From NCBI GenBank assembly GCA_016845285.1, contig JAERSX010000320.1, forward strand, positions 1-35,909: a stretch of DNA of 35,909 nucleotides. The letters run 5' to 3'. Both the position numbers and the translations under genes were made by a program. The notes beneath the pieces are model-generated. The model was not told the origin of the DNA. It saw nothing but the letters and a program-made list of their open reading frames with translations, and did no database searches. Positions 1 to 19,990 of the stretch are shown here, piece by piece; the first letter of the stretch is position 1; each line of letters begins with the position of its first letter. Source of the DNA: Deltaproteobacteria bacterium (GTDB lineage Bacteria > Myxococcota_A > UBA796 > UBA2385).

Positions 1-3000
1 CCCTCCGGCGTAGGACAAGCAGAGCAGGCGAAGGGTCGGGTCGACCTGGGGCGCCCGCTTGCGGGCTGCGGCGGCCCGGGGCTCGTCCAAGAAGCCAGCG
101 GCCTCCATGCGGCGGACGCCCTCCTGGATGGCGCCCACCAAGACGTCGACGTCGGCGTCGGAGTGAGCGGTTGACAGGAACATGGTCCGCCCCTCCCACA
201 CGTAGACACCCTGGTCGAGCAGGTGAGCGAAGAGCAGGTCCAGCTTGCGAGACATCTTGAAGCGGAAGAGCGAGCCCGCGTTGACCACCTCGATGGGCAC
301 GTCATTGTCGGCGAACCACCCATTCAGCCGGATGGCGAGGTCGTCGGTCTTGGCGTTCAGCGCCTCCTGCAGAGTGGGTCCGGCCTCCTTCATGTGGGTG
401 AGTGCGGCGTGTGCGGCAGCGAGAGTCACCGGGTTCTTGTTGAAGGTGCCCGCGAACCACACCGTGTCGGTCTGGGGCGTAGAGTCGTCGCCAAAGACCC
501 AAGAGCCACCGTCAATGCAGTCGAGCCAGCGGGCGTCGCCGGCCAGCAACCCGATGGGCATGCCACCACCCACGATCTTGCCGTAGGTGACGATGTCGGC
601 CTCGATGCCGTACCAGGCCTGCGCCCCGCCTTGAGCCAGACGGAAGCCCACCATGACCTCATCGAAGATGAGGGCCACGTCGGCATCACGGGTCCAGGCC
701 CGCAGCTGGTGCAGAAACTCGCGCGGCTGGAGATCTGGCCGCCGACTCTGGACCGGCTCGACGATGACAGCCGCCAGTTCGTGGGCGTGCGCCGCCAGTG
801 TACGCAGTGCCTGCTCGCTGCCGTATTCGAGCACCAACACATCGTCGTACATGCCTGGTGCGCATCCCTCGAGGCGGGGAATGGGAGCGAGCACGCCATC
901 GAAGGAGCCATGGTAGGCGCCGGCGAACATGGCCACTCTGGGCCGCCCCGTGGCGGCGCGTGCCACACGCAGGGCGTTCATGACGGCCTCGGAACCCGTG
1001 TTGCAGAAGGCCACACGGTCCACCTTGGTGAGCTCGCAGACGAGTGCAGCCACATCGTTTGCTGACTCGCCCTGCGGACCAATCTGGAGACCCCGACTGA
1101 TCTGCTCGGTGAGCGCCTCGGCGATGAAGGGAGGGGTGTGCCCGAAGAGGTGCACACCGAAGCCCATGGTGAAGTCGATGTACTCGTTGTCGTCGATGTC
1201 CCAGAAGCGGGAGCCCCGCGAGCGTGTGGCGACCACGGGGTAGCAGAGTTGCTTGAGTGACAACCACTCTCCACGAACCGTAGCCGGGAAGGCCGCTCGG
1301 AATCCCGCGGAGGAGCGCACATCGGCGAGGAAGCTGTGACCCTCGGCCTTGCGTTCCTTGGAGCTCGGGAGGCGTGCTGCGAGGCGATCGGCCAACACCT
1401 GGATGTGGGCCCGCTGCTGCTCGGTCCAGGCCGACGTGGAGGCCTCGACGGTCTCGGCACGGTGAGCCCCGGTGGTCTCGACCACGGGTGCGACCATGGC
1501 ACGGGTGGTCTCTCGGCTGGGGCCAGCCCGACCGGGAACCTGCTCAGCGAGATGACGTGCGAGGTCCACAGGACGGGGGAAGCGGTTGAGGATGTCGCTC
1601 AGGGCAACGCGCACACCAAACTCAACCTGGATGCGCTGCACCCCCTCCACCAGCATCAGCGAGTCCACACCGAGCTCGATGAATGGGGTCTCCATGGACA
1701 CTGCCGACGCATCATAGTGGAGCAGATCGGCGATGATCTCCCGCAACCGGGGACCCACTTCGCGGTCCCGACGTGCCGTCTTCACGATGGGTGCGGAGTT
1801 CTCCTCGGGAGTAGCGAGCTGGAAGAGCAGGGGCGCGGAAGCCGGTGCCTGAGGGACCTCGACCCAGTAGCTCCGCTCATGGAAGCGGTAGGGCGGAAGG
1901 CTCGGCAAGGTCTCCGAACCGCGACCCTGGACCCGCTCCCAGTCGACCGAAATGCCGTTGACGTGGAGCGAGACCAAGGATCGGAGAATCCGCTCCCCTG
2001 CCGCAGACCGAGGAGAGGTCGAGGGAAGACGCAGGACGCCCGGGTCCTTGACCACACGCTGGTGCATGGCGAGCAAGGTGCCGCGGGGGCCGAGCTCGAT
2101 ACAGGCTCGCACGCGCGCCTTCATGCGGCCCAGGGTCCCCATGGCATCGGCGAAACGCACTGGGCTCAGGAGCTGGTCGACCCAGTACTCGGGCCGGGCG
2201 ATCTCCTCGCCCACCAGCTCACCGGTCATGCTCGAGATCATGGGGATCTGCGGCGGCGAGAGCTGCACGCCCGACATGACAGCCCGAAGCGGAGCCCCAG
2301 CGGGGTCCATCAGCGGTGAGTGGAAGGCGTGGGAGACAGCCAGTGGCCGCACGCCGACACCGCTGGCACCGAGCAGCTCGGCGCCAACACGGATGGCCTC
2401 GGTGTCACCCGAGAGCACCACCTTGCCTGGCGTGTTCACGGCGCTGATCACGAGCTCACCGTCCACCTGGGCGATGAGCTCTTCGACCACCGCAGCCTCG
2501 GCCGCAACAGCCAGCATGGCCCCCGGGGGACAAGCCTGCATGAGACGTCCACGCTCCGTCGCCAGCCTCAGGCCGTCCTCGAAGCTGACCACACCGGCCG
2601 TCCAAGCCGCAGCGAGCTCACCCACGCTGTGGCCTACCACCACGTCGGGCTCGACCCCCCACGAGCGCCACAGGCGGGCCAGCGACACCTGGAAGGAGAA
2701 CAGCGCGGGTTGGACCCACTCGGTGTCGGTGGTGACATCGCCATCCTGGGCCAGCATGGGCTCTAGGAGGGGTCGATCCAGGTAGAGCGAGGCGATGGCA
2801 TCGGCCTCGTCCATGGACGCCCGGAAGACGGGCCAGGTGAGGTAGAGCTCACGGGCCACGCCACCGAGCGGCGTGCCCTGGCCGCTGAACAGCCACGCCA
2901 GCGCTGCACGGCCCTTGGCACTGCTGCCCTGCACCCCACGGAGCGAGCTGCCTTCGCTCAGGTAGGCCTCCAGCTCTCCCACGAGCTGCTCTCGGTCGGA

Positions 3001-6000
3001 CACGACCCAGCCGGCCCGGTGCTCGAGGCCGCCCCGAGACACGGTCGCCGCCGCACAAAACTCACGGATGTCGGAGGAGGACGAAGAAGAGCGGAGGCAG
3101 TCGAGAAAGCTGCTTGCCTGAGCCACCAGATCTTCGGGGTGGGGCGCGCTCAGTGCGAACACGGACAGGCCCTCGACGACACGCTGCGGCGCCTGTTCCT
3201 GCCGCGGCGCCTCCTCGAGGATGACGTGGGCATTGGTGCCAGACATGCCAAAGGAGCTGACGGCCGCCAGACGGGGGATGTCGCCCCGGCACCAGGGCTC
3301 GGGGGTCGTGGGCACCCGCACGGGAATTTCGTCCCAGCGAATGAGCGGGCTCGGCTTCTCGAGATGGAGGTGGGGCGGTATGACCTCGTGGCGTAGGCTC
3401 AGCGCCGCGCGCAACAACCCGGTCACTCCGGCAGCGGCCTCGAGATGCCCGAAGTTGGACTTTCCCGAGCCAACGAGTAGGGGCGCCTCAGCGGGTCGGT
3501 CCTTGCCGTAGGTGTCGACCAGGGCAGCCATCTCGATTGGGTCGCCCAGACGGGTGCCGGTGCCATGGGCTTCGACGTAGCCGATCTCGCTCGGCTGGAC
3601 GCCCGCTTGGGCCATGGCCTTCTCAATGACAGCGCGCTGTGCTGTGCCGTTGGGGGTGGTCAGCCCGAAGCTCTTGCCATCGTGGTTGATGGCCGAGCTG
3701 CGGATCACAGCCACCACATGATCGCCATCCCGGACCGCGTCGGCGTACCGCTTCAACACGACGAAGGAGCAACCCTCAGCGCGTCCGAACCCATCTGCCG
3801 AGGCGTCGAAGGCCTTGCAGCGACCGTCAGGGGAGAGAGCACCGATCGAGCTGAAGTACACCGAACCCGACGGCGACAGCATGAGGTTCACGCCACCGGC
3901 CATCGCCAGGTTGGTTTCGCCCGTGCGGAGCCCTTGACAGGCGAAGTGCAACGCCACCAGCGAGGACGAACACGACGTGTCCAGGGACACTGCGGGACCG
4001 TGGGTGCCCAGGACATGAGACAAGCGTCCGGCAGCGGTGCTGGCCGCGTTGCCGGTGCCCACGAAGGGATCACTCCACCACTGGGTACCTCGCTGAGCGT
4101 GGTGCTCGGTGTAGTCGCGGTTGGAGATGCCCAGGTAGATCCCAGTCTGGCTCCCGGTCAGCCCGCCTGATGTCTGTCCCGCGTTCTCCAGCGCCTGCCA
4201 GGCCACCTGGAGCACCAAGCGCTGCTGGGGATCCATGCTGCGGGCCTCAGCCGGCGAGACTCCGAAGAATCGGGCGTCGAACCCGTCGACACGGGGCAAG
4301 AAGCCGCCTTGTCGGGTGACCGACAGACCCGAGCCTACCGAGGGGTCGTAGAAGGCGTCTGCGTCCCAGCGGTCACTCGGGACCATCGAGACCGCGTCGA
4401 CACCCTCGATGAGAGCAGACCAGAGGGCACTGCCGTCGTCCACACCTGGCAAGCGACAGCCAAAGCCGATGATGGCGATGCTGTCCGCCAGTCGATCCGG
4501 CCGCTCGGAGACACCTTCGGCCGAGGACCCCGGCGAGCTCAACGTGGTTGCCCTGGGGCTCCGAAGCGACTCCACCTCGCGGAAGCGGGCCGGCTCATGT
4601 TCGGCATGGGCAGGAGCACCCACCTCCTCTTCGGTGAGCTCGGTCGCGAGATGATCCGCCATCTGGCGAATTGTGGGTTGATCAAACGGGAGGTTCAGGG
4701 GAACCGAACGACCCAATGCTGCCTCTAGATCATCGACGAGCAGGGTCACCTCGAGGGAATCCACGCCAAAGACGGCGATAGGGGCCTCCAAGTCGACCTC
4801 GTCGGCCCCGATACCCGCCACCTTGGCGAGACGCTGGGACAGCCAACCCTCGAGCACGACAGCCTTACCGTTCCGGGTCAGCGCCTCCAGGTCGAGGCGA
4901 CCATCTTCTACAGGCTCCTCGACCACGGCGGTGGGAGACGCAGCACGAGCACGAGACCATGCAGGAATGAAGTACTCTTCGAGAGTGCCGGTGTCGACGC
5001 CCTCACGAACCTTGTGGCGCTGGACCTTGCCACTCGAAGTCTTGGGAAGCTCACCCTTGGGCAAGATGACGACACCACCCAAGGCCAATTCGTGCGCAGA
5101 CATGACGCGGATGATGATCTGATCGACCATCGTCGCACGTTCATCATCGCCCAGAGCCGAGCGCGCCTCGACGGCCACCACGACACCTTGGGTCTCAGTA
5201 CTCACGGCCACCGTGCAGCCAGGACGCACAGCCAGACCCGACGTCTCTACCGAATGCTCGATGTCCTGAGGATAGTGGTTCTGCCCCCGGACGATGATGA
5301 GGTCCTTGATGCGTCCACTGATGAAGATCCGTCCATCACGGACGAAGCCGAGATCGCCCGTGCGCAGCATGGGCCCCTCGCCCTGCACCGGTGCCTCGAA
5401 GACCTCTGCAGTCAGTTCATCGCGATTCCAATATCCGGCGGCGAGGTTGGCACCGCCAAGACAGATCTCTCCCGTGGTGCCGTCGGGGACGGGCTTCAGC
5501 GTGTCGGGATCGGCAATCACCACTCTCTGTCCATCCGACGGAACACCACAGGACACCACGCCATCCACCGCCTGCCGGTGCCCCGGCTGGTCGTGTTCAC
5601 CGCTGATGTACAGCGTGCCTTCCGCCAAGCCGTAGCAAGGAAATGCAGCGCGCGGATTGAAGCCGCTAGGTGCGAACGCCTCCGCAAAGCGATCCAAAGT
5701 CGCGGCACGTACGGGCTCGGCCCCATTCAACGCCACCCGCCAGGTGCTGAGATCGAGAGCGGCTCGCGTCTCAGGCGTCGTCTTACGTACACACAGATCG
5801 TACGCGAAATTGGGGCCCCCGCTGATCGTCGCACGATATCTATGCACCGCCTGGACCCAACGGGCCGGCCGCTGCAGGAAGTCCAGCGGCGACATCAGGT
5901 ACATCGGAAAGCCCGCATACACAGGCTGAAGCAGCTTTCCCACGAGCCCCATGTCGTGGTAGAAGGGCAGCCAGGACACCCCCACGCTCTCTGGCCCGGC

Positions 6001-6642
6001 ACCGGTTCCCTGCTGGATCATGGCCTCGTTGGCCATGAGGTTGCCGTGTGTGACCATGACCCCCTTGGGCGTACTCGTGGAGCCTGAGGTGTACTGCAGA
6101 AACGCCAACTCCGTAGTGGCAGGCCGCCAGTCGACGTCGTCCTCTTCGTCTCCGGGGCCGACCTCGTCGGTGGCCAAGACCACCAGCTTCGCGAGCGACT
6201 GTGAATACTTGTAGAGCATCGGCATCATCGACGCAATCAGTGAGTTTGAGAGCACCAGCTTGGCCCCACAATCCTCCACGATCGACACGAGCCGAGGCAC
6301 AGTGCGCTCGAGGCGCATGAGGTCTGGTGGATAGGCCGGCACGGCGACGATGCCCGAATAGAGACAGGCCCAGAAGCCCACCACGTAGTCCACGCCCGGC
6401 GGGTAGAGCAGCAGGGCACGATCGCCCGGCTCGGCATTCTGGCGCAGAACCACTGCGAGGCCGCGAGCCAATGCGTCAAGGTCAGCGTAGGAGACACCAA
6501 GAGCGTCACCATCACCATGTTCCAGAAAACCGTAACAACGGCGATCGGGCTGAGTCGAAGCCCGCATGCGCAAGACCTCTGTCAACGTCGCCGCACTCAG
6601 CGGGTGAGAAGACCTGCGTACAGCCAGATTGGGTGCGAGCAC
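1..6642 (-). CDS. Type I PKS-like megasynthase with domain order FAAL-ACP-KS-AT-ACP-aminotransferase-(thioesterase start). The C-terminus runs off the left window edge.
   Basis: The gene is absent from the ORF track because its stop lies beyond position 1. My own reverse-strand translation gives one uninterrupted frame from GTG 6642 to position 1. An in-frame TGA sits at 6694-6696, with no ATG/GTG/TTG between it and 6642. Motifs read: LQYTSGSTSTPKGVMVTHGNL, FYHDMGL, GRIKDLIIVRGQNHYPQDIE and LPKTSSGKVQR (fatty acyl-AMP ligase); FGVDSLE; DTSCSSS, EAHGTGT and GKSNFGHLE (KS); GHSVGE and HAFHS (AT); LGVDSLM; YGKIVGGGMPIG (PLP lysine of a class III aminotransferase); LRLLCLSYAGG at the very end (thioesterase-type start). 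Confidence 0.9.
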   Translation of the reverse strand, partial: MLAPNLAVRRSSHPLSAATLTEVLRMRASTQPDRRCYGFLEHGDGDALGVSYADLDALARGLAVVLRQNAEPGDRALLLYPPGVDYVVGFWACLYSGIVAVPAYPPDLMRLERTVPRLVSIVEDCGAKLVLSNSLIASMMPMLYKYSQSLAKLVVLATDEVGPGDEEDDVDWRPATTELAFLQYTSGSTSTPKGVMVTHGNLMANEAMIQQGTGAGPESVGVSWLPFYHDMGLVGKLLQPVYAGFPMYLMSPLDFLQRPARWVQAVHRYRATISGGPNFAYDLCVRKTTPETRAALDLSTWRVALNGAEPVRAATLDRFAEAFAPSGFNPRAAFPCYGLAEGTLYISGEHDQPGHRQAVDGVVSCGVPSDGQRVVIADPDTLKPVPDGTTGEICLGGANLAAGYWNRDELTAEVFEAPVQGEGPMLRTGDLGFVRDGRIFISGRIKDLIIVRGQNHYPQDIEHSVETSGLAVRPGCTVAVSTETQGVVVAVEARSALGDDERATMVDQIIIRVMSAHELALGGVVILPKGELPKTSSGKVQRHKVREGVDTGTLEEYFIPAWSRARAASPTAVVEEPVEDGRLDLEALTRNGKAVVLEGWLSQRLAKVAGIGADEVDLEAPIAVFGVDSLEVTLLVDDLEAALGRSVPLNLPFDQPTIRQMADHLATELTEEEVGAPAHAEHEPARFREVESLRSPRATTLSSPGSSAEGVSERPDRLADSIAIIGFGCRLPGVDDGSALWSALIEGVDAVSMVPSDRWDADAFYDPSVGSGLSVTRQGGFLPRVDGFDARFFGVSPAEARSMDPQQRLVLQVAWQALENAGQTSGGLTGSQTGIYLGISNRDYTEHHAQRGTQWWSDPFVGTGNAASTAAGRLSHVLGTHGPAVSLDTSCSSSLVALHFACQGLRTGETNLAMAGGVNLMLSPSGSVYFSSIGALSPDGRCKAFDASADGFGRAEGCSFVVLKRYADAVRDGDHVVAVIRSSAINHDGKSFGLTTPNGTAQRAVIEKAMAQAGVQPSEIGYVEAHGTGTRLGDPIEMAALVDTYGKDRPAEAPLLVGSGKSNFGHLEAAAGVTGLLRAALSLRHEVIPPHLHLEKPSPLIRWDEIPVRVPTTPEPWCRGDIPRLAAVSSFGMSGTNAHVILEEAPRQEQAPQRVVEGLSVFALSAPHPEDLVAQASSFLDCLRSSSSSSDIREFCAAATVSRGGLEHRAGWVVSDREQLVGELEAYLSEGSSLRGVQGSSAKGRAALAWLFSGQGTPLGGVARELYLTWPVFRASMDEADAIASLYLDRPLLEPMLAQDGDVTTDTEWVQPALFSFQVSLARLWRSWGVEPDVVVGHSVGELAAAWTAGVVSFEDGLRLATERGRLMQACPPGAMLAVAAEAAVVEELIAQVDGELVISAVNTPGKVVLSGDTEAIRVGAELLGASGVGVRPLAVSHAFHSPLMDPAGAPLRAVMSGVQLSPPQIPMISSMTGELVGEEIARPEYWVDQLLSPVRFADAMGTLGRMKARVRACIELGPRGTLLAMHQRVVKDPGVLRLPSTSPRSAAGERILRSLVSLHVNGISVDWERVQGRGSETLPSLPPYRFHERSYWVEVPQAPASAPLLFQLATPEENSAPIVKTARRDREVGPRLREIIADLLHYDASAVSMETPFIELGVDSLMLVEGVQRIQVEFGVRVALSDILNRFPRPVDLARHLAEQVPGRAGPSRETTRAMVAPVVETTGAHRAETVEASTSAWTEQQRAHIQVLADRLAARLPSSKERKAEGHSFLADVRSSAGFRAAFPATVRGEWLSLKQLCYPVVATRSRGSRFWDIDDNEYIDFTMGFGVHLFGHTPPFIAEALTEQISRGLQIGPQGESANDVAALVCELTKVDRVAFCNTGSEAVMNALRVARAATGRPRVAMFAGAYHGSFDGVLAPIPRLEGCAPGMYDDVLVLEYGSEQALRTLAAHAHELAAVIVEPVQSRRPDLQPREFLHQLRAWTRDADVALIFDEVMVGFRLAQGGAQAWYGIEADIVTYGKIVGGGMPIGLLAGDARWLDCIDGGSWVFGDDSTPQTDTVWFAGTFNKNPVTLAAAHAALTHMKEAGPTLQEALNAKTDDLAIRLNGWFADNDVPIEVVNAGSLFRFKMSRKLDLLFAHLLDQGVYVWEGRTMFLSTAHSDADVDVLVGAIQEGVRRMEAAGFLDEPRAAAARKRAPQVDPTLRLLCLSYAGG
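115..1330 (-). other. Class III (GSA-aminomutase-like) PLP aminotransferase domain
   Basis: Motifs read: SRGSRFWDIDDNEYIDFTMGFGVHLFGH, CNTGSEAV, LIFDEVMVGFR and YGKIVGGGMP. The Lys codon is at 577-579. Confidence 0.85.
1570..1770 (-). other. ACP domain 2. There is no KR/DH/ER between AT and this ACP.
   Basis: LGVDSLM with the Ser codon at 1660-1662. Only about 100 aa of linker separate the AT end from this ACP, which is too short for a ketoreductase. Confidence 0.8.
2060..2900 (-). other. Acyltransferase domain, predicted malonyl-specific
   Basis: FSGQGT entry motif; GHSVGE with the Ser codon at 2626-2628; and an HAFH motif (about 2316-2333), which is the malonyl-CoA signature rather than YASH. 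Confidence 0.8.
3205..4487 (-). other. Ketosynthase domain
   Basis: The domain begins IAIIGFGCRLPG. The active-site Cys in DTSCSSS is at 3970-3972. EAHGTGT and NFGH are present, and the domain ends FGMSGTNAHVILEE. Confidence 0.9.
4650..4850 (-). other. ACP domain 1
   Basis: Phosphopantetheine attachment motif FGVDSLE, with the Ser codon at 4756-4758. Confidence 0.8.
4990..6594 (-). other. Fatty acyl-AMP ligase (FAAL) / adenylation domain of the megasynthase
   Basis: The AMP-binding core motifs YTSGSTSTPKG (about 6061-6098), YGLAE, TGDLG and SSGKVQR (about 5010-5050) occur in the expected order. Confidence 0.85.
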
Positions 6643-6878
6643 ACACCACCCCCGTGGGCAGATTGAGGATTCGGGATCATTATCGTAAGCAGATCACAGT
6701 AGCAAGCCTATCCACAGTGCCGTAACTGTAGAACGAACGGGCACATGCAGGTAGCTCGGACAGGCCATGCGCCGCATGGACGTCTCCCATATCATGGGCT
6801 TTCCCCTCCTCCACCGGCGTATCGTCCAGGAACTACAGACAGGCCTGGCCCACTTCACATCCACTGTGCACACCACAC

Positions 6879-6907
6879 TTGACCACACCCCCTCATCGTC
6901 ATAGTTT
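6879..6907 (+). promoter_or_regulatory. Candidate sigma70-like promoter for the desaturase-like gene
   Basis: TTGACC at 6879-6884 is followed 15-17 nt later by CATAGTTT (6900-6907). It lies in the lower-GC divergent intergenic region. The match to consensus is imperfect. Confidence 0.25.
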
Positions 6908-6965
6908 CGGAGCGCCACGGCACCGAGAACACACCACTCATGCTGCCCAACGGAGGACCTCTGCA

Positions 6966-7856
6966 ATGGCCCCTAGTGTCGTAACAGACTCAGCAATCGC
7001 GGGAACGCCACCGGTCTCTTACAGCCGGGACGCCATACCCAATGATCAACAGTTGCCAGCCTACACGCTCACCGGACTCCGGCGAGCCTTCTTCATGGCG
7101 ATCTACGTGACCGCCGTCGTCGTCTCTTTCGGCGGCATCGCATTCAGTCTCTTCGTCAACCCGCTGCTCGCCGTCTTCGGGGTCGTCACTGCTTACCTGG
7201 TCAACAACTACGCATTCTCGATCACGCACGTCCGGTACCACAGCAGCTTCATCGAGCTGCCCGAGTCGAAGATGGAGGTGCTGCTACACACCTCCTTCAT
7301 CCACCACTACCGGGACACCGAGGCCTACCACAAGACTTGGCTCGAGTCGCGAGTCAGCTACTTCGTCGATCCGAAGGATGGTATCTTCAGCTCGATCTTC
7401 CTGGCCATGGTGCCAGCAACGCTGATCATTTCGGCCTTCTTGTACACATACAGCCCTGTGCTCGGCGTCACCTACCTGTCCACCATCTGGGCAGCCCAGC
7501 TTCTCCAGGGCTCCATTCACGAGTGGTACCACTACCCCAAGCGGAGGCGGCTCGAATACTTCCACCCGGCGACCCACTACTTCTTCACCTTCCTTGAGAA
7601 GGTCCGCATCGCCGACGGAAAGCGTCACTCCTACCACCACCGCCACCAGCTCCACAACCTCCAGGACGTCGAGCTTTGGCTCGATCTCGCCATCCCCTGG
7701 GGAGACAAGCTTCCAACCTACCTCTGGAAGAAGGTGCTGAAGCTCTACCGGCCGGGCGAGATCCGCATGGTGCCGGCGATCAGCATCCTGATCTACTTCA
7801 CCTACGTCTTCCTGCACAGTCTGCTCACCTTCGGGTACATCCAGCTCTTCGCGTAG
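6966..7856 (+). CDS. Integral-membrane His-box di-iron lipid desaturase-like protein; resembles the CarF/PEDS1(TMEM189)/FAD4 family
   Basis: I chose ATG 6966 because GGAGG (6950-6954) precedes it. The track start, TTG 6879, coincides with the putative -35 element. Several hydrophobic segments are present. The histidine clusters are THVRYH, HTSFIHHYRD, IHEWYHY and RHSYHHRHQLH. Their order and spacing recall HW..EHHID..IHKWSH..HHRIHH of TMEM189 as I remember it. Confidence 0.6.
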   Translation: MAPSVVTDSAIAGTPPVSYSRDAIPNDQQLPAYTLTGLRRAFFMAIYVTAVVVSFGGIAFSLFVNPLLAVFGVVTAYLVNNYAFSITHVRYHSSFIELPESKMEVLLHTSFIHHYRDTEAYHKTWLESRVSYFVDPKDGIFSSIFLAMVPATLIISAFLYTYSPVLGVTYLSTIWAAQLLQGSIHEWYHYPKRRRLEYFHPATHYFFTFLEKVRIADGKRHSYHHRHQLHNLQDVELWLDLAIPWGDKLPTYLWKKVLKLYRPGEIRMVPAISILIYFTYVFLHSLLTFGYIQLFA

Positions 7857-7873
7857 TGCCGACAGGCCGTTCG

Positions 7874-7912
7874 CGTCCCCAGCTGACACCCCAGTGGTGC
7901 CCGCTGGGGGCG
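7874..7912. terminator. GC-rich hairpin between convergent genes (possible bidirectional terminator)
   Basis: CGTCCCCAGC (7874-7883) pairs with GCTGGGGGCG (7903-7912), with one G-U pair. The loop is about 19 nt and contains a small CACC/GGTG stem. There is no U-tract. Confidence 0.3.
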
Positions 7913-7942
7913 TCGCCAATTGGGGAGAGAGAGGACCCCGCC

Positions 7943-9430
7943 TCAGCGGCAGCGATGGTCGGGGCCGTACGCGTCCCAGAACATGGCCGCGGTGCTCAGC
8001 GTCATGGCCTCCCGGGCATCCACCCCGGAAGGGAACGCAGCCGCGGCCATGTGGGGCGGAAGCAAGGGCATGTCGAGGTCGGGGCCCCCGGGCCAGTCGG
8101 CCGAGGCCAGTCCCGGCTCCAGGCACGACACGACCTGCTCCGGGGCGTTGTACCGGACCGGTAGCCCCCGCTCGTAGGCAGCCTCGTAGACCAGCCGAAC
8201 GTTGGCGCGGTGCGTCAGGGTGACGGCGTGAGGCACCTCGGTGTAGGCCAGGCCGAGGCGCCAGTCAGCCAGCTCGGCAGCCTCGCTCACAGACGCCAGC
8301 ATGTGGCGGGTGCTCCAGAAGGCCACGGTCGCCTCGGGATCCTCGACATGGGTGGGCCAGTCGTCCAGCGACAGCACACCGGCATCCATGGCTGCAGCCA
8401 GCACCTGGGGGGTGAACACGTGGCGCTCGGAGCCACCGGCTCGGGTGACCAGATCGCGGAGGGGGGGCAGGATGGCGTCCTCGTCCTCACCGATGACCCC
8501 GTCGCCGTCCACGTCGGGGTGGCCGTCGACGAGGTCCAGCTTCCCGGAGTGGTCGCGGTCCAGGTAGAGCACGCCCGGTGGCGCGCTGGTCGTGCTGACG
8601 CCAAAGACATCGTCCATGGACACCTCCTCGGTCCAGCGGATCGTGTCCAGCTCCATGGGGCAGTCGACCTCGTCGCATCCGGCCTCGTCGAGGGACCGGT
8701 TCCGGCCCTCGTCCCAGGGGATGCCGTTGTCGTCGTGGTCGGTCTCGGGATGCGGATCCATCCACAAGGCACCCGCGTCTGGCCCCACCATGGCCGGCAG
8801 GCTCGGCGGTTCGTAGGCCACCAGGCCCACGACGTGGGGGGCGAGGAGCTCTGCGTCACGGGCCAGCGCCCGCATCCCCACCATGCTCCCCGACGAGCGC
8901 GCCGCGATCACCACCTCGTCTCCGCAGACGGGCACGCCGCTCGACATGGGCAAGGAGGCCCCATCGACGCCCGTCCGCTCGCCCGCCGCGAAGAGCACGG
9001 CCTCTCGCACGGCGGTCACGCTGGCCTCACCGGCGTAGTCGAAGTCCCCGGAGGTGTGGTGGCCCGCGACGCCCATGCCCGGGGGAACCACGGTGACCTC
9101 CACCAGGCCGCCGCTCGCCGAGAGGTTGGGCACGAAGTCACGGGTCCAGCCCGCTGCAGGACTCAGGGCCGCAGGAAGCACCACCACGACGGGCGCCCCC
9201 TCGGTCCAGGCCGTCTCCCCGCTCGCAGGCCAGGCCACGATGACTGCGAGCTCGTCGAAGGCGTCGGTCTGGACCGACACCACCCGCCAGGCCATGCCAG
9301 CAGGGTCGACCGCCTGCGCCACCGCACCGCCGCCCCGACACGTTGGGGTCGGGGTGGTCGGTCCAGCTCCACCTGGAGAGGGCTGGCAAGACCACAGCAC
9401 AGCACACGCAGAGAGGCGAAGACACGACAT
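7943..9430 (-). CDS. Hypothetical exported lipoprotein with DxDxDG-type calcium-binding-like loops
   Basis: 495-aa ORF. The N-terminus MSCLRLSACAVLWSCQ looks like a lipobox. An acidic loop DRDHSGKLDLVDGHPDVDGDGVIGEDED is present. I recognise no catalytic motif. Confidence 0.6.
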   Translation of the reverse strand: MSCLRLSACAVLWSCQPSPGGAGPTTPTPTCRGGGAVAQAVDPAGMAWRVVSVQTDAFDELAVIVAWPASGETAWTEGAPVVVVLPAALSPAAGWTRDFVPNLSASGGLVEVTVVPPGMGVAGHHTSGDFDYAGEASVTAVREAVLFAAGERTGVDGASLPMSSGVPVCGDEVVIAARSSGSMVGMRALARDAELLAPHVVGLVAYEPPSLPAMVGPDAGALWMDPHPETDHDDNGIPWDEGRNRSLDEAGCDEVDCPMELDTIRWTEEVSMDDVFGVSTTSAPPGVLYLDRDHSGKLDLVDGHPDVDGDGVIGEDEDAILPPLRDLVTRAGGSERHVFTPQVLAAAMDAGVLSLDDWPTHVEDPEATVAFWSTRHMLASVSEAAELADWRLGLAYTEVPHAVTLTHRANVRLVYEAAYERGLPVRYNAPEQVVSCLEPGLASADWPGGPDLDMPLLPPHMAAAAFPSGVDAREAMTLSTAAMFWDAYGPDHRCR

Positions 9431-9442
9431 GGTCGAACCTTG

Positions 9443-9522
9443 GCGGCGCCACCCGAATGGTCTCCCGAGATCTGCTGGTGCTGCGTGACGAGTAGGTCAC
9501 GAGGAGCCTCGAGTGGCGCCGC
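9443..9522 (-). promoter_or_regulatory. Structured intergenic element (nested inverted repeats) between two minus-strand lipoprotein genes
   Basis: A perfect 10-bp inverted repeat, GCGGCGCCAC (9443-9452) / GTGGCGCCGC (9513-9522), encloses a CGTGAC-gagtag-GTCACG hairpin (9484-9501). The element sits directly after the stop at 9531 and directly before the start at 9430. Confidence 0.35.
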
Positions 9523-9530
9523 AGGGGGGA

Positions 9531-9881
<351 letters not shown>

Positions 9882-10178: not shown

Positions 10179-10673
10179 CTGCGCGTCGCCATCCTCACCC
10201 TCGTCACCTCCCTCTGCACCATCTCTTGTGCCGGGGAAAACCCTCCCTGCGACCCCGACGCGGCCGAGCCGAGCGCAATTCTCGGCACAGGTGTCGACGA
10301 GGCCTTCGACCCCATCGAGGCTGGGGACCCGGCCGGTCTGGTCACGGCACCCCAGGGTGGCATGGGCGTGAGCGTCCGCGTGCTCACGACCGGCCTCGAC
10401 CCCGGCTCCGTCGACGTGCTCCTCGACACCGAGATCGACGGCGAGACAGCCGGTAGCTTCCTCAACGAAGGTGTGCGTCTGTACTGCCAGGAGGACGGTG
10501 AGCACGCGATGATCTGGGGCGTGGTCGTCGGCTTCGATCAGGACGACTACGGTACCAACGACAAGCTGCTCAGCCTGGACGGCCAGGAGGTAGACCTCGT
10601 GGTCACCGTCACCGACAAGTTCGACGTCAGCGCCGTGGCCAACGTACCCGTGACCATCGAGGTGGGTGGGTGA
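10179..10673 (+). CDS. Small lipoprotein, first gene of the cytochrome operon; start codon uncertain (probably non-canonical CTG)
   Basis: The frame of track ORF 10362..10673 stays open back to TAG 10149-10151. Just after GGAG (10166-10169) it encodes LRVAILTLVTSLCTISCAG, a good lipoprotein signal. There is no in-frame ATG/GTG/TTG before 10362. The stop overlaps the next start (GTGA). Confidence 0.55.
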   Translation: MRVAILTLVTSLCTISCAGENPPCDPDAAEPSAILGTGVDEAFDPIEAGDPAGLVTAPQGGMGVSVRVLTTGLDPGSVDVLLDTEIDGETAGSFLNEGVRLYCQEDGEHAMIWGVVVGFDQDDYGTNDKLLSLDGQEVDLVVTVTDKFDVSAVANVPVTIEVGG

Positions 10674-12676
10674 AGATCATCCGCCTTGGACTGCTGATCA
10701 TCGGCCTTGGCGGCTGCCCAAGCGAACCGGCCACGCCCACCCACGTGGTCGAGGGCTGCGCCACCTGCCACATGGGCATCGAGCAGGCCCACCCCACCAC
10801 CGAGGACATCGGCCCGAGCGAGTGCACCATCTGCCACGGCGGTGACCCCGGTGCCCTCGATCAGGACGGCGCCCACATCCCCATCCCCGATGACTGGGCC
10901 GAGATCCGTGGCGACGGCCTTCCTGCCGCTCCCGAGGGCTTCATCGGCGACTTCGCACCCGATCAGCTCGACGCCATCGACCCCGACTACCTGCGCTTCA
11001 TCAACCCCGGCGACCTGCGCACAGCGGAGATCGCCTGCGGCGAGTGCCACCCCGAGCAGGTGGCCACGGTGAAGACCTCGATCATGTCGACGAACGCCGG
11101 CCACTACTGGCCCACCCGAAGCTACGCCGACCTGCAAGACGCCACCGCGCTGTACGGCACCTCCGAAATCACCGTCGAAGAGTGCGACCCGGACGCCGGC
11201 ACCGTGTGTGAGCTCACGGTCCTGCGGCCCCAGGACGAGGCCACCATCGAGCAGGCGCTCGCCGACGACGACCTCGATGCCCTCGAACAGATCGCCTACG
11301 ACCACTACCTGGCCAAGTCGTGCAACACCTGCCACGCCGGCGGCTACCCGAAGAACAACAGCCCACACCTCTACCGATCCAGCGGCTGCTCGGCCTGCCA
11401 CATGGTCTACAACGAGGACGGCGTCTACGAGGGCAACGATCCCACGGTGCCGGTGGGCGTTCCCGTTCACGCCAGCCGCCACGAGCTCACCGCCTCGGTG
11501 CCGACGACCCAGTGCGCCACCTGCCACTTCCAGGGTGGGCGGATCGGCCTCAACTTCCGAGGCATCCGTGAGGGCGGCTTCTCCGAGGCGCCCCCCAACG
11601 CTCAGGTCTGGGCAGCTGGCAGCGCCTATGGCCACGTCTCCGGCTACTACTTCGTCGACGAAGACACCACGAACGACGTGGACGAGACCCCGCCCGACCT
11701 CCACCACACCGCCGGCATGCACTGCGCCGACTGCCACGTGGGCACCGATGTGCACGGAGACGGCCAGCTCCACAGCGCCTCCAAGACCCAGTTCGACCTG
11801 CGCTGCGAGGACTGCCACGGAGACGCCCGTGATGCCGCCGAGCCCGACGAGGAGGGGATCTTCCGCACCGAGCAAGGCCGGCCCCTGCCCCAGCTCTCCC
11901 AGGGAGAAGACGGCGGCGTGGTGCTCACGAGCCAGGTGACGGGCGTCGTGTTCGACGTGCCGCAGCCCGCCACCATCCTCGCGGGCGACGAGGCCAGCGA
12001 CGAGATGCGGGCCGCCATGGAGCCACGCGAGAGCGATGGCTGGTCGCACCCCGACAGCCTCACCTGTGACACCTGCCACAACAGCTGGCAGCTCTACTGC
12101 CTGGGCTGCCACGTCACCCTCGACATGCGGCTCAACCAGGTCGACTACCAGACCGGCAGCAAGACGCCCGGCAACGTACGCGGCAGCCGGGACATCTGGA
12201 TGTTGGACCACCTGCTGCTCAGCAAGCGCACAGACGGGATGATCCAGGCGACCAACCCGAGCCAGCACGTCCAGCTCACGGTCATCGACTTCGAGGGCGA
12301 GGTCCGCATCGGTCGCGACGACGGCGAGGCCGGGTCCACCGGCGTCTTCCGCAGCAACGCCACCACCGATGCCCAGGCCGGCTTCGCTCCCTTCTTCCAG
12401 CACACGAGCTCCGCCGAGCCCCGCCCCTGCATCACATGTCACCCCGTGGATGCCTCAGCCGACGAGCAGACCCGTGTGAAGGGCACCTACGGCTTCGGCA
12501 CGGGCGAGTTCGTGCTCGACAATCCCGACGGCGACCCCGTGGACCCGCTGCAGTTCCTCGACGCAGACGGAAACCAGACGAGCGCCTTTGCGCATCCAGG
12601 CACCGGCCCCCTCGACGCCGACACCATCGAGCGCGCGCTGTCCGTCACCGTGGACCCTCCCGAGGAGGACGAGTGA
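10670..12676 (+). CDS. Multiheme c-type cytochrome lipoprotein (11 CXXCH motifs)
   Basis: 668-aa ORF with a GTG start and the signal MKIIRLGLLIIGLGGC. I counted the motifs CATCH, CTICH, CGECH, CNTCH, CSACH, CATCH, CADCH, CEDCH, CDTCH, CLGCH and CITCH. Confidence 0.9.
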   Translation: MKIIRLGLLIIGLGGCPSEPATPTHVVEGCATCHMGIEQAHPTTEDIGPSECTICHGGDPGALDQDGAHIPIPDDWAEIRGDGLPAAPEGFIGDFAPDQLDAIDPDYLRFINPGDLRTAEIACGECHPEQVATVKTSIMSTNAGHYWPTRSYADLQDATALYGTSEITVEECDPDAGTVCELTVLRPQDEATIEQALADDDLDALEQIAYDHYLAKSCNTCHAGGYPKNNSPHLYRSSGCSACHMVYNEDGVYEGNDPTVPVGVPVHASRHELTASVPTTQCATCHFQGGRIGLNFRGIREGGFSEAPPNAQVWAAGSAYGHVSGYYFVDEDTTNDVDETPPDLHHTAGMHCADCHVGTDVHGDGQLHSASKTQFDLRCEDCHGDARDAAEPDEEGIFRTEQGRPLPQLSQGEDGGVVLTSQVTGVVFDVPQPATILAGDEASDEMRAAMEPRESDGWSHPDSLTCDTCHNSWQLYCLGCHVTLDMRLNQVDYQTGSKTPGNVRGSRDIWMLDHLLLSKRTDGMIQATNPSQHVQLTVIDFEGEVRIGRDDGEAGSTGVFRSNATTDAQAGFAPFFQHTSSAEPRPCITCHPVDASADEQTRVKGTYGFGTGEFVLDNPDGDPVDPLQFLDADGNQTSAFAHPGTGPLDADTIERALSVTVDPPEEDE

Positions 12677-14827: not shown

Positions 14828-15409
14828 ATGGGCACCAAGCGAACCTCTCCCGAAGCCATCCTGGACGCCGCGGAGCACGCCTTCGGGACCGACGGCTACA
14901 CCGGTGCCCGACTGGCCGACATCTCCGCTGCCGTGGGCATTCGCAGGCCGAGCCTGCTCTACCACTTCAAGACCAAGGACGCGCTCTACAACGCGGTGGT
15001 CCTGCGCCTCTTCGAGTCTCTGAGAGAGACCTTCACCGAAGCCTTCGAGGCAGGTGGCAGCTTCGAAGACCGCATGCTGCGACTGATGAGCGCCTACCTC
15101 GCCTTCCTCGACGAGCGCCCCGCCTTCGCGCCCCTCGTCATCCGGGAGATCCTCGACGGCCACGGCCCTGGTCGACACCTCCTCGAGACCCGGCTCGTGC
15201 CCTTGCTCGACCTCATCGAGCAGTGGCTGGCGCAGGCGGGAGGCGGCGAGATCCCCGAAGGCGTCCAGATTCGAAGCGCCATCATGCATCTCGGCAGCAA
15301 CGCGATCCTCCACGCTGCAGCAGGGCCACTGCAGGGGCCGTTGTGGGGCTCCGATGGGGGCACCCTGGACCTGGCCCGGCGGCTCTTGCTCGCGGAGGAC
15401 CGTGCGTGA
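14828..15409 (+). CDS. TetR/AcrR family transcriptional regulator
   Basis: The N-terminal helix-turn-helix reads ILDAAEHAFGTDGYTGARLADISAAVGIRRPSLLYHFKTKDALY. The 193-aa size is typical of the family. Confidence 0.9.
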   Translation: MGTKRTSPEAILDAAEHAFGTDGYTGARLADISAAVGIRRPSLLYHFKTKDALYNAVVLRLFESLRETFTEAFEAGGSFEDRMLRLMSAYLAFLDERPAFAPLVIREILDGHGPGRHLLETRLVPLLDLIEQWLAQAGGGEIPEGVQIRSAIMHLGSNAILHAAAGPLQGPLWGSDGGTLDLARRLLLAEDRA

Positions 15410-15461
15410 CCCGGAGGGCTGTAGCCCCCCTGAGAGGCCGGCCCCGTGATAGCTCCGGTGC

Positions 15462-17252
15462 ATGTCGGACTCCCCCTCCTTCGCAGACGTCGACCCCACC
15501 CCACGTGCAGCCTGGCGCGCCCTCGTCGAGGCCGGGCTGAAGGGCGCCTCCTTCGAGCGGCGCACGTCGCGGACCCTGCCCGGGGGGGTGGTGCTGCCGG
15601 TGCTGGCCACCGCCCATGACGCTGTGGACAGCGGGCTCCCGGGTCTCGCCCCGTACCCCCGAGGCACCGCGGCCAGGCCGGGCTGGAAGACCGCGGTCTG
15701 TCACCCGAGCCATGCACCCGAGCTGGGCGCACGACTCGCCCTGGACGCCGCGCGTGGCGCCACGGCCTGCTGGCTCGAGGCCCCGCTCGCCGATGGACCC
15801 CACGACGATCAGGCCGACGACGAGAGCCTCGCCTTCCCGGTGGGCCTCGAGCTCTACTTCGGCCCGGGCGTCATGGACCTCGACGCAGGCGAGGAGCTGC
15901 TCGACCCCACCCTCTGGGAAGGCCGCGGCCGGGTCTGCTTCGGGGCCGATCCTGCCACCCTCGCAGCCCGTACCTCCAGCCCACTGGACCTCGACGAGGC
16001 GGCCGAGCTCGCCCTGGCTGCCTCCGCAGTCACAGCCGAAGACCTCGATCTGCGCGTGCTCCTCGTCGACACCGGCTACGCCCACGATGCCGGCGCCGAC
16101 GACGTCCTCGACCTCGCCCTGGCCTTGGCCACCACCGTCGCCTGGCTGCGCGAGCTCACGGGCCGCGGCCTCTCGCTCCACGACGCCCTCGCACAGCAAG
16201 TCCACCATCTCCGCGTCGGCACGGCCCCCTTCGCGAGCATCGCCAAGCTCCGTGCCTTCCGCTCTGTCGTGGCGCGCGTCTGCGAAGCCGCGGGCGACGT
16301 CGAAGCCGCCCGGGCCCTGGTCATCGTCTCCAGCCTGGGAGCCCGGCACCTGAGCCGCGTCGACGCACCGGTCAACGTGCTCCGCAACACCTCCGCCTGC
16401 TTCGCCGGCGCCCTGGGTGGGGCTCAGGTGGTGGCCTCACGGCCCCACGACGCCCTGCGACCCCAGCCCGGAGAGGCCGGACGCCGCATCGCGCGCAACA
16501 CGCCGCTGATGCTCGACCTGGAGGCCGGTCTCGCCGATGTGGCCGATCCCATCGGAGGCTCCTGGTCCATCGAACAGCTGACCGCCGACCTCGCGGGCGC
16601 GGCCTGGGCCCGCTTCCAGGAGCTGGAGGCCCACGGGGGCCTGGGCGCGGTCCTCACGAGCGGCTGGTTGGCGTCGGAGGTGGACGTGGCCTGGGAGCGA
16701 CAGGCGAAGGCCTTGCGGCGCCGCAAGGCTCAGCTCACCGGCGTGAGCGCCTTCGCCGCACTCGACGAGGCCCCGGTACAGGTACCTCAGGCGAGGGGCC
16801 CCTTCCCGCTGCGCCGCTGGGCCGCCGGCTTCGAGGCTCTGCGTGCCCGCGCCCACGCCTGGGAAGCGACCCACGGCGCTCCTCCGCACGTCACCGTGGC
16901 CACCCTCGGCCCCGAGGCCCACCACACCGCCCGCACCACCTGGGTGCGCAACGCCCTGGCGGCCGGTGGCTTCCACACCGAGGAGCTCGATGGACAGGCG
17001 CTCCCCGCCACACTGCCCACGCCCCTCGCCGTGCTGAGCGCCCCCGACGGTCGGGTCGACGCCGAGGGGGTGGGCACGCTCGCCAGGCTCGTGTCCGCTG
17101 GCGCCCGCCACGTCCGCATCGCTGGCCGCCCTGGCGCGCAGGCCGAGGCCCACACCGCTGCTGGCGCCGCCGGCTGGATGGGGGTGGGAGACGACCTCGA
17201 GGCGCTGCTGGCCGAATTCCATGACGTCCTCGGCCGCGAGGTGAGCCCGTGA
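15462..17252 (+). CDS. mutA: Methylmalonyl-CoA mutase small (beta) subunit
   Basis: 596-aa ORF immediately upstream of the large subunit and overlapping it (GTGA). It shows mutase-like similarity ([24 protein letters not shown]) but lacks the DxHxxG B12 motif. Confidence 0.8.
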
Positions 17253-19381
17253 TCCCCGACTTCACCCAGATCCCCTGGCAGACCCCCGCCTCGAAGGCCG
17301 AGGGTGTCGAGCCCACCCGACAGGACACCCCCGAGGGCGTCCCGCTGGCCTCCGTCTACACGGCCGCAGACCTGTCCGACCTGGGCACCCTGCACACCAT
17401 GCCCGGACTCCCGCCCTTCCTCCGCGGCCCCTACGCCACCATGTACAGCGGGCGCCCCTGGACCGTCCGTCAGTACGCGGGCTTCTCGACGGCCGAAGCC
17501 AGCAATGCCTTCTACCGACGCAACCTCGCCGCCGGCCAGAAGGGGCTGTCCATCGCCTTCGATCTGGCCACCCACCGCGGCTACGACAGCGACCATCCCC
17601 GGGTGGTCGGCGACGTCGGCATGGCCGGCGTGGCCATCGACAGCATCCTCGACATGCGAATCCTCTTCGAGGGCATTCCGCTCGATCGCATGAGCGTGTC
17701 CATGACCATGAACGGGGCCGTCCTGCCCATCATGGCCCTCTACATCGTGGCCGCCGAGGAGCAGGGCGTGGCGCCCGCAGCCCTCAGCGGCACCATCCAT
17801 AACGACATCCTCAAGGAGTTCATGGTCCGGAACACGTACGTGTACCCGCCGGCTCCGAGCCTCCGGATCATCGGCGACATCTTCGGCTACACCGCCGCTC
17901 ACATGCCGCGCTTCAACAGCATCAGCGTGTCCGGCTACCACATGCAGGAGGCCGGAGCGACCGCCGACCTCGAGCTCGCCTACACCCTGGCCGACGGCCT
18001 CGAGTACCTGCGCACCGGTGTGGCCGCGGGCCTCGACATCGATCGCTTCGCGCCCCGCATCTCCTTCTTCTGGGGAATCGGGATGCGCTTCATGATGGAG
18101 GTGGCCAAGCTGCGCGCCGGCCGCCTGCTCTGGAGTCACATCGTGGGCGGCTTCGGCCCCAAGAACCCGAAGTCGCGCTCGCTGCGCACCCACAGCCAGA
18201 CCAGCGGCTGGTCGCTCACGGCTCAAGACCCCTACAACAACATCGTGCGCACCTGCGTCGAGGCCATGGCCGCCACCCAGGGCCACACCCAGTCTCTCCA
18301 CACCAACTCCTTCGACGAGGCCCTGGCCCTGCCGAGCGACCTGAGCGCGCGCATCGCCCGAAACACCCAGCTCTTCCTGCAGCACGAGACCGACACCTGC
18401 GACCTCGTCGACCCCTGGGGCGGCAGCTACGCCATCGAGCGTCTCACCGCCGACCTCGCGGCCCGTGCCTGGGAGCACATCGTCGAGGTCGAGGAGCTCG
18501 GCGGCATGGCCAAGGCCATCGAGGCGGGCATTCCCAAGATGCGCATCGAGGAGGCCGCCGCCCGCACCCAGGCCCGCATCGACAGCGGCCGGCAGGTCGT
18601 GCTCGGCGTCAACCGCTACCAGCTCGACGACGAGCCCGAGATCGAGGTGCGTCAGGTGGACAACGACGAGGTGCGCCGCGCCCAGCTCGCGCGCCTGGCA
18701 CAGCTCCGGGCAGAACGTGACGAGGCCGCCACCCAGGCCGCCCTCGCCGCCCTCACCCGCGGCGCCGAGGCCCAAGGCAACCTGCTCGACCTCAGCGTGA
18801 AGGCCGCCCGAGCCAAGGCCACCGTGGGCGAGATCAGCGATGCGCTGGAGCGAGCCTTCGGCCGCCACCAGGCCCACCCCAAGGCACTCCGCGGCGTCTA
18901 CCGCCGCGAGCTCGGAGAGGACACCGCCGTGACCCAGTCCATCGAAGAGGCCGTCGCTCGCTTCGAGGCCCTCGAGGGCCGTCGACCTCGCATCCTGGTC
19001 GCCAAGATGGGCCAGGACGGCCACGACCGCGGCCAGAAGGTCATCAGCACCGCCTTCGCCGACCTCGGCTTCGACGTGGACGTGGGCCCCCTCTTCCAGA
19101 CGCCCGCCGAGACCGCACGGCAGGCCGTGGAGAACGATGTACACGTCGTCGGCGTGAGCTCACTGGCCGCCGGCCATCTCACCCTGGTGCCGGCGCTCCG
19201 GGCCGAGCTGGCTGCCTACGATCGCGAGGACATCGTCATCGTCGTGGGAGGCGTGGTCCCGCCCCAGGACTACGACGCTCTCTACGAGGCCGGCGCCACC
19301 TGCATCTTCGGGCCGGGCACCGTCATCGCAGACGCCGCGCTGGAGCTCATGAGCGAGCTGGAGCGCCGCGTCGGCGCCTGA
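17249..19381 (+). CDS. mutB: Methylmalonyl-CoA mutase large (alpha) subunit, B12-dependent
   Basis: Motifs read: [48 protein letters not shown], and the C-terminal cobalamin motif [10 protein letters not shown]. Confidence 0.95.
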
Positions 19382-19399
19382 GCCCGGGGCACCCTGTGC

Positions 19400-19822
19400 T
19401 CAGTACCACATGGGCAGGTGGAGCTCTGCGCCATCGGCGGGGACCTGCACCGAGCAGTTCGACCACCGGGGGACCATCAAGGGCTTCTTCGTACACGAAG
19501 CAGCGGTGCCCTCAGAGGGTCCGGGTGGCAGGAAGGCGAAGTCGAGCTCGCCATCTGCGTCGTGGTCATGGTGGATGGTGAAGCCGTAGCGACCCGGGGC
19601 CAGGTCGCTCACGCGCATCTCGATGGTCGCGCTGCTCGCGGGCACTGTCAGGCTGCGCACCTCCTCTCCCCAGTGCGGGTAGGTCTCCTCAGCGTCGAAG
19701 ACGCGCAGCACCAAGGGCGCGCCATCGGTCTGGACGCCGTCGAGCCGGATGACCACATCACCAGCTCGGGCCGCCGAGAGCGCCGAGAACGCGGAGAGCG
19801 CCGAGAGCAGCATCAGTGACAT
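19400..19822 (-). CDS. Secreted DUF2141-like protein
   Basis: Only the last 140 aa of track ORF 19400..20671 are plausible. ATG 19822 is preceded by GGGAG. The signal is MSLMLLSALSAFSALSAARA. The segment LAPGRYGFTIHHDHDADGELDF..PPGPSEGTAAS resembles the DUF2141 core. The rest of that track ORF is antisense to meaB. Confidence 0.6.
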   Translation of the reverse strand: MSLMLLSALSAFSALSAARAGDVVIRLDGVQTDGAPLVLRVFDAEETYPHWGEEVRSLTVPASSATIEMRVSDLAPGRYGFTIHHDHDADGELDFAFLPPGPSEGTAASCTKKPLMVPRWSNCSVQVPADGAELHLPMWY

Positions 19823-19990
19823 GGGGGCTCCCAGGGACTCCAGGTGCTGTGCTCCTGGCCCACCACACCCTCCAGGTCCCCCAGGATGCCACGCATCCCA
19901 GGCAAGCTCCGCGACGATCTGTACCGAGATCCGCGCAGAGCTTCGACACCTGGCGCTGAGCCGCGCGCCGTTCCAGGCTAAGCCTCCGAC

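Follow-up and report, generated by a model that had tools for sequence, protein, structure and literature searches.

The left end of a 35,909-nucleotide stretch of contig JAERSX010000320.1 from a Deltaproteobacteria bacterium (GCA_016845285.1; the whole stretch is hereafter called the window) raises the question of what is released by a type I polyketide synthase (PKS) module in which a pyridoxal phosphate (PLP)-dependent aminotransferase (AMT) stands between the last acyl carrier protein (ACP) and a thioesterase (TE). The gene concerned, read from the minus strand at positions 1-6642, probably encodes a one-module type I PKS that is primed with a lipid, works on its own and yields a free 3-amino (beta-amino) fatty acid, and it may well be the first member of a family of synthases dedicated to free 3-amino fatty acids. 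On our best reading, the enzyme is a variant of the iturin-type starter module in which the nonribosomal peptide synthetase (NRPS) part has been replaced by a thioesterase, and it is both rare and uncharacterised.

We examined the reading frame and its completeness. In the window, which has a base composition of about 68% G+C, a minus-strand frame without a stop codon extends from position 6693 to position 1, giving 2214 codons if translation starts at GTG 6642. The preliminary description of this DNA had noticed a continuous frame that the list of open reading frames misses, and the frame is indeed absent from that list because it runs off the left end of the contig. A complete public copy of the protein, P0209 (2414 amino acids), is the same as the window translation from ATG 6567 onward, runs on through the full thioesterase and meets a stop after residue 2414. 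The contig that carries it, L086 (Logan SRR13374100), is 100% identical to window positions 1-9593, so that extension of the contig to the left through L086 brings the protein to its end after the TE. Since L086 and P0209 carry the intact gene and the window is a complete 35,909-bp NCBI contig in itself, the truncation in the window is an assembly edge and not biology. As for the start codon, the public gene call of P0209 uses ATG 6567; because the homologues are about 22 residues longer at the N-terminus and a conserved ATLTEVL lies upstream of this ATG, the other candidates, GTG 6642 or TTG 6585, appear more likely.

Residues of the window protein were counted from GTG 6642 and its domains were assigned with Pfam and NCBIfam, which gave the following features:

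1..6642, minus strand: partial single-module PKS gene, fatty acyl-AMP ligase (FAAL)-ACP-ketosynthase (KS)-acyltransferase (AT)-ACP-AMT-TE; 2214 codons out of about 2439, the rest lying beyond the contig end
4999..6567, minus strand: FAAL loading domain, residues 26-548 (PF00501, E 1.6e-68, and PF23024)
4639..4860, minus strand: ACP1, limits approximate (PF00550; phosphopantetheine serine in FGVDSLEV, at about residue 629)
3055..4485, minus strand: KS with its C-terminal extension, residues 720-1196 (PF00109, E 1.3e-84; PF02801, E 4e-42; PF16197)
2044..2895, minus strand: cis AT, residues 1250-1533 (PF00698, E 4e-56)
1549..1749, minus strand: ACP2, residues 1632-1698 (best stretch of PF00550; serine in LGVDSLML)
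106..1239, minus strand: class III PLP aminotransferase of the MycA type, residues 1802-2179 (PF00202, E 3e-51; lysine in VTYGKIVGGG)
1..42, minus strand: thioesterase start, its first 14 residues being DPTLRLLCLSYAGG (aligned to AMT-TE proteins; about 225 residues lie beyond the contig end)

The domain E-values span 1e-84 to 1e-26, far beyond chance. The top NCBIfam matches of the FAAL region were FAAL models (PRK05850, FadD32 and FAAL21/28), and the motifs YTSGSTSTPKG, YGLAEGT, RTGDLGF and TSSGKVQR are kept across the family of relatives. PF00550 gives two stretches (phosphopantetheine-binding, two copies), with the serine motif of ACP1 conserved, while the KS has its Cys-His-His triad in DTSCSSS, EAHGTGT and NFGHLEAAAG, and the AT carries its serine in GHSVGE together with SHAFHSP, which contains the malonyl-type HAFH signature. 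All the catalytic motifs, namely the FAAL core, both ACP serines, the KS triad, the AT serine, the AMT lysine and the Ser-Asp-His of the TE, are intact and shared by nine family members; HAFH itself is retained in five of the nine. No ketoreductase (KR), dehydratase (DH) or enoylreductase (ER) was matched between AT and ACP2 of the window protein, and neither adh_short nor PKS_KR matched this interval in the window protein or in P0209. A sulfotransferase was likewise without a match in both proteins, the gap between ACP and TE being filled by PF00202 (Aminotran_3). The domain string, the malonyl-type AT and the lack of KR, DH and ER had been read from motifs in the preliminary description and were borne out here, every described element lying at the coordinates given and the TE being completed in P0209. 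The mycolic-acid condensase Pks13 was rejected as a candidate identity, as NF040607 scored 685 bits against a cut-off of 2100, with its best stretch in the ACP1-KS region.

The aminotransferase was compared with solved structures in the PDB. The closest was the AMT domain of MycA from the mycosubtilin system (6KFM/6KFR/6KFU; E 2e-125, about 55% identity), whose lysine motif YGKI(V/I)GGG aligns with YGKIVGGG of the window protein; the glutamate-semialdehyde aminomutases follow as the next group at just E 1e-50. The domain is thus of the MycA/ItuA kind, as had been proposed. In the iturin and mycosubtilin systems, an acyl ligase (AL)-ACP-KS-ACP-AMT module converts a fatty acid and malonate into a beta-keto thioester and then into a beta-amino thioester (PMC11751314). 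The enzyme described here shares with the first module of MycA/ItuA an acyl-AMP ligase and ACP that load a free fatty acid, a KS that condenses it with malonyl-ACP, the absence of reduction and the embedded class III PLP aminotransferase. It differs in that its AT is in cis, whereas iturin has the separate transacylase ItuD (PMC11751314); in that a TE and a stop codon, instead of condensation (C), adenylation (A) and peptidyl carrier protein (PCP) domains, follow the aminotransferase, with no NRPS genes nearby; and in that the predicted product is a free amino acid instead of a lipopeptide. The same aminotransferase domain family occurs in McyE, puwainaphycin Puw, laxaphycin and myxofacycline Iso6, and the puwainaphycin chain is likewise FAAL-primed (PMC4219810). 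In these systems, however, the amino intermediate is handed to further NRPS or PKS modules, and none ends in AMT-TE. Myxofacycline was rejected as a precedent because of its different architecture, in which another PKS module comes after a C-ACP-AMT module (PMC9298251).

We then investigated the off-loading end. Residues 2180-2396 of P0209 match the thioesterase family PF00975 (E 4.8e-30) and carry GHSMG, the conserved Asp and GDHFF. When the 14-residue tail of the window protein is aligned to three AMT-TE proteins, it falls on the start of their thioesterase, with equal linker length, and in P0001, P0002 and P0115, the top-ranked among the relatives of about 51% identity obtained with an ACP2-AMT-tail query, PF00975 comes directly after the aminotransferase. 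The PDB structures nearest to the P0209 thioesterase are 7e3z, 6vap, 3qmv/3qmw (which we take to be RedJ), RifR, TesA, YbtT, surfactin type II thioesterase and the human medium-chain S-acyl fatty acid synthase thioesterase, the type II matches lying between E 1e-26 and 1e-16. Macrolide PKS thioesterases matched far more weakly, the obafluorin synthetase ObiF1, which reportedly makes a beta-lactone, was a distant match, and no CurM chain appeared among the PDB matches even at E<=10. The terminal segment, from which the preliminary description had seen only the first residues, is accordingly a real thioesterase, and judging from its sequence it resembles the type II hydrolytic thioesterases such as RifR, RedJ and TesA. 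It has the fold of RifR, TesA, YbtT, surfactin type II thioesterase, the human medium-chain enzyme and 3qmv/3qmw and their motifs GHSMG, Asp and GDHF, but these are separate proteins of about 250 amino acids, whereas the TE described here forms the C-terminal end of the synthase and is joined to the aminotransferase by a linker of about 25 residues. It is placed where MycA has its C domain, which makes this the position of an off-loading domain.

The preliminary description had framed the enzyme as olefin-synthase-like, and this part did not hold. As in the case of the Ols/CurM terminal module (KR-ACP-sulfotransferase-TE at its end), FAAL-ACP loading is followed by KS-AT, there is one extension module, and the protein ends in a domain that modifies the beta position plus a TE. 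However, KR, sulfotransferase and CurM-type TE are all lacking here, so that three of the four defining features fail. The homology of the off-loading end to olefin synthases was rejected, since the TE matches type II enzymes and no CurM chain; with CurM undetected, the analogy is formal only, a likeness of layout.

These features suggest a simple reaction sequence. The FAAL would activate a free fatty acid (Cn) as the acyl-AMP and load it onto ACP1, the cis AT would put malonate on ACP2, and condensation by the KS would give the 3-oxo-acyl(Cn+2)-S-ACP2, whose keto group would persist because KR, DH and ER are lacking. The MycA-type aminotransferase would then convert the 3-oxo group to yield the 3-aminoacyl-S-ACP2, and hydrolysis of the thioester by the fused type-II-like TE (Ser-Asp-His) would free the 3-amino fatty acid. 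By analogy with the systems compared above, we infer the fatty acid substrate and its chain length, the amino donor, hydrolysis as the mode of release and what becomes of the product. Acyl chains are set free as acids by RedJ and by the mammalian medium-chain thioesterase, so that release does take place in this thioesterase group.

The surroundings of the gene bear on whether the acyl chain goes to a peptide synthetase. No NRPS C, A or PCP domain was found in the 35.9-kb window or in the 10 kb beyond the stop codon on L086 (about 46 kb together), and when C-domain-containing relatives were used as queries, they matched the window and L086 through their ACP and aminotransferase parts only. To the left of position 1 there is thus no continuation into C-A-PCP, as P0209 ends after the TE and its neighbours are non-NRPS genes. 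The notion of a stand-alone machine, put forward in the preliminary description, stands to the extent that the polypeptide ends after the TE with no NRPS nearby, while its free beta-amino fatty acid product is a prediction.

To place the AMT-TE arrangement among known proteins, a HMMER profile of the aminotransferase C-terminus plus TE was run exhaustively against 1.84 billion (1.84e9) protein representatives with 50%-identity clustering. The AMT-TE fusion was present in about 14 of the 150 top-ranked 50%-identity representatives, and P0209 was found by this search only; a word-indexed protein search missed it and also missed P0002, although P0002 was in the query alignment, and the negatives of the latter search need caution. 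Among genome contigs, the best aminotransferase matches had 53-55% identity, and none of 80 loci had a TE of the AMT-TE type in the available flanks (<=10 kb), while a metagenome scan with AMT-TE gave nothing above 45% identity and no further family members. In a tree of 132 aminotransferase domains, the 12 AMT-TE aminotransferases, P0209 included, form an exclusive clade (12/12), set apart from aminotransferases that precede a C domain. The same domain string does occur in other genomes: P0356 of Archangium primigenium (WP_204486471.1, annotated as 'type I polyketide synthase') and P0211 of Melittangium (WP_434383093.1) are end-to-end collinear with P0209 at 47% identity each, as are P0359 (45%) and P0210 (44%). 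All four terminate after the thioesterase and have no NRPS within 10 kb, and no NRPS gene lies within 10 kb at any of the seven related loci examined. P0208, P0212 and P0214 are shorter members that begin at the KS. We found no homologue with an assigned product in databases or full-text literature, and full-text searches returned no paper on a PKS terminated by AMT-TE.

The arrangement was also seen outside one-module enzymes. At L091:1-15196, a multimodular reducing PKS ends with KS-AT-ACP-AMT-TE, and P450s and two PapA_C acyltransferases are encoded close by; at L090:10001-25328 the same domain string is found beside FMN/FAD oxidoreductases, a TauD-like dioxygenase and another PKS. From these cases, AMT-TE appears to serve more generally, though rarely, to off-load beta-amino polyketide acids. 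P0218 and P0236 are AMT-TE didomain proteins without a PKS part. The AMT-TE protein P0215 (ENA, 2289 amino acids) has about 500 extra residues between AT and ACP, in which a glycine-rich motif of the Rossmann type, TGALGAIG, recalls a KR; were this region active, it would reduce the beta-keto group that the aminotransferase needs, so that either of the two may lack activity or work at another position. Finally, a 5.2-kb metagenome contig (L002:1-4618, encoding P0002) has FAAL-ACP, then the C-terminal part of the AT and ACP-AMT-TE, without the KS and most of the AT, and may have arisen by deletion or be a chimera of the assembly. The synthase gene is frameshifted in L001, which is the locus of P0001, the top-scoring relative in the ACP-AMT search.

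Several other outcomes were weighed against release of a free 3-amino fatty acid. That MycA provides the closest aminotransferase structure, and that many aminotransferase relatives run into a C domain (PF00668), would suit an iturin-type lipopeptide starter, in which the 3-aminoacyl chain is passed in trans to a distant NRPS and the fused TE serves as an editing or proofreading domain; editing is the classical role of type II thioesterases, and the JGI label of the relative P0359 is 'iturin family lipopeptide synthetase A'. We nevertheless regard this as unlikely in view of the lack of NRPS domains around the window gene and at the seven related loci, the separate clade of the AMT-TE proteins, and the TE standing exactly at the MycA C-domain position. 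Decarboxylative release, either by a CurM/Ols-like TE to a 1-alkylamine-type product or by hydrolysis at the beta-keto stage to a methyl ketone and onward to a 2-aminoalkane, draws on the formal FAAL-ACP-KS-AT-...-ACP-X-TE likeness to Ols and on the general readiness of beta-keto acids to decarboxylate. It is improbable, as the TE is not of the CurM type, KR and sulfotransferase are missing, and beta-amino acids are stable and do not decarboxylate spontaneously. The chemistry of sulfate elimination and decarboxylation is not transferable to a beta-amine, the protonated amine being a poorer leaving group than sulfate, and the alkylamine option that the preliminary description had entertained is therefore unsupported. 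Moreover, MycA-type aminotransferase domains work on carrier-bound beta-keto thioesters (PMC11751314).

The tethered substrate bears its own nucleophile, so an amide- or ester-forming release to a beta-lactam, a head-to-tail dimer or oligomer, or by transfer to a lipid or amine acceptor, also has to be considered. The beta-lactone maker ObiF1 among the distant TE matches, the amidohydrolase genes adjoining the synthase gene in L086 and L001, and acyltransferase-type genes near some relatives would fit this outcome. It too seems improbable, however, because the nearest TE relatives are plain hydrolases, making a four-membered ring out of a thioester costs much energy and is without precedent in this TE family, and no acceptor-supplying gene is conserved among the loci. 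The specific proposal that the TE uses the beta-amine of its substrate or a second molecule as the nucleophile, giving a 4-alkyl-beta-lactam, a cyclic or linear beta-peptide oligomer or an N-linked amino-lipid, is a long shot, although if true it would be an unprecedented PKS-only route to amide-linked lipids or beta-lactams. A decaying relic or an assembly artefact might be suspected from the truncation in the window and from the KS-less L002 and frameshifted L001 relatives, but it is very hard to credit: the truncation is merely the contig end, Logan SRR13374100, which was assembled independently, contains the identical complete gene, no catalytic residue is lost, and the third-codon-position G+C content of 0.78 is coding-like, though at the low end among the window genes. 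Some points do weigh against a dedicated synthase of free 3-amino fatty acids. A product has been seen for no family member, type II thioesterases often edit rather than release, and the source is a fragmented metagenome-assembled genome, so that an NRPS elsewhere in the genome is possible. The aminotransferase tree was built by neighbour-joining without bootstrap support, the neighbourhoods differ among members so that a shared downstream pathway is not evident, and the window locus lacks the heme-oxygenase-like and membrane-protein partners of the Archangium/Melittangium group.

To our knowledge, beta-amino fatty acids from PKS-embedded aminotransferases have so far been found only inside lipopeptide assembly lines, such as those of iturins, puwainaphycins and microcystin Adda. 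A free 3-aminononanoate is reportedly obtained from a PKS-bound precursor by CmiS1/CmiS2 for cremimycin-type macrolactams; these are said to use Michael addition of glycine to an enoyl thioester by a thioesterase-like enzyme followed by oxidative cleavage, with no PLP aminotransferase, and thus resemble the present enzyme in supplying a free beta-amino fatty acid through unrelated chemistry. If our assignment is true, it would define a small, new family of enzymes for lipid-amine biosynthesis in Myxococcota and other bacteria of soil or sediment, with products never seen, and it would point to undescribed free or further-modified amino lipids, the Archangium/Melittangium gene adjoining a heme-oxygenase-like protein. 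In our view, it would also offer a ready AMT-TE off-loading unit for the PKS engineering of beta-amino acids, from which beta-lactams and nylon-3-type polymers can be made. The two cultured myxobacteria hold collinear homologues, making the hypothesis directly testable. We expect moderate interest among natural-product and lipid biochemists in an enzyme that is rare and uncharacterised and whose product is plausible.

The genes around the related synthases recur in part. A gene for a heme-oxygenase-like protein (PF14518, weak; about 270 amino acids) lies directly upstream of the synthase at L121:9145-9984, L088:6399-7208, L089:9146-9952 and L087:8176-9987. The proteins of Archangium primigenium, Melittangium and two metagenome loci share 44-48% mutual identity, the Melittangium gene call being 603 amino acids long with an FA_desaturase match. 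Enzymes of the heme-oxygenase-like fold often oxidise amines or fatty acids, so that the 3-amino fatty acid may be modified by this protein. Several AMT-TE synthases are followed downstream by a membrane domain of about 200 amino acids with weak likeness to ferric reductase/MsrQ:

L088:14757-17282, L003:1895-4426, L084:2026-2436, L121:18101-18790 and L087:18098-18724: membrane-domain loci

In Archangium and Melittangium this domain is a protein by itself, whereas in metagenome loci it forms an unusual fusion with a FadD11-like long-chain acyl-CoA ligase (841-844 amino acids); at L085:1715-2023 the start of the ligase (AMP-binding) alone is visible. These partners of the P0210/P0211/P0359 group, heme-oxygenase-like protein and membrane domain/FadD11-like ligase alike, are absent from the window and L086. 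An amidohydrolase gene (product about 580 amino acids) converges on the 3' end of the synthase gene at L086:12016-13761 and L001:6124-7345, with 37-47% identity between loci, and may be a functional link to an amide-containing derivative. In an all-versus-all BLAST of the neighbours, the window locus shared a methyltransferase with L089 and the amidohydrolase with L001. A conserved gene cluster was rejected on this patchy sharing, from which no common downstream pathway can be inferred.

In L086, the next gene after the synthase stop is convergent and 10 bp away. It belongs to an operon for a bile-acid/Na+ symporter-family (BASS) transporter, an alpha/beta-hydrolase and the 581-amino-acid amidohydrolase, and further on are a second alpha/beta-hydrolase, an acyl-CoA-dehydrogenase-like protein, a DesA-like desaturase, a methyltransferase and an FAD-dependent monooxygenase or halogenase-like protein. 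The hydrolases, the BASS transporter, the desaturase and the methyltransferase may or may not act on the product.

The other 29 kb of the window (6879-35909) encode a multihaem cytochrome, a TetR regulator, methylmalonyl-CoA mutase, MeaB, CotH/lamin-tail proteins, an M20 peptidase and proteins without assignment. No tRNA was found in the window, and no cobalamin riboswitch or other Rfam family was detected across it. At 14828-20992, a TetR-family regulator gene is followed by those for the small and large subunits of methylmalonyl-CoA mutase and the MeaB GTPase. The large mutase subunit shares 98% identity with proteins from JGI and ENA metagenome contigs and 75-78% with proteins from Myxococcota or 'Deltaproteobacteria' metagenome-assembled genomes, which tentatively points to an uncultured relative of the Myxococcota as the probable source. 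Three CotH-kinase-domain proteins and two lamin-tail proteins (one of them also with CotH) are encoded at 21028-26088 and 35118-35852, with a DUF4956 protein at 30158-30841 as a neighbour of this group, and a multihaem c-type cytochrome of 668 amino acids is encoded at 10670-12676; the CotH, lamin-tail and DUF4956 proteins and the cytochrome look unrelated to the PKS.

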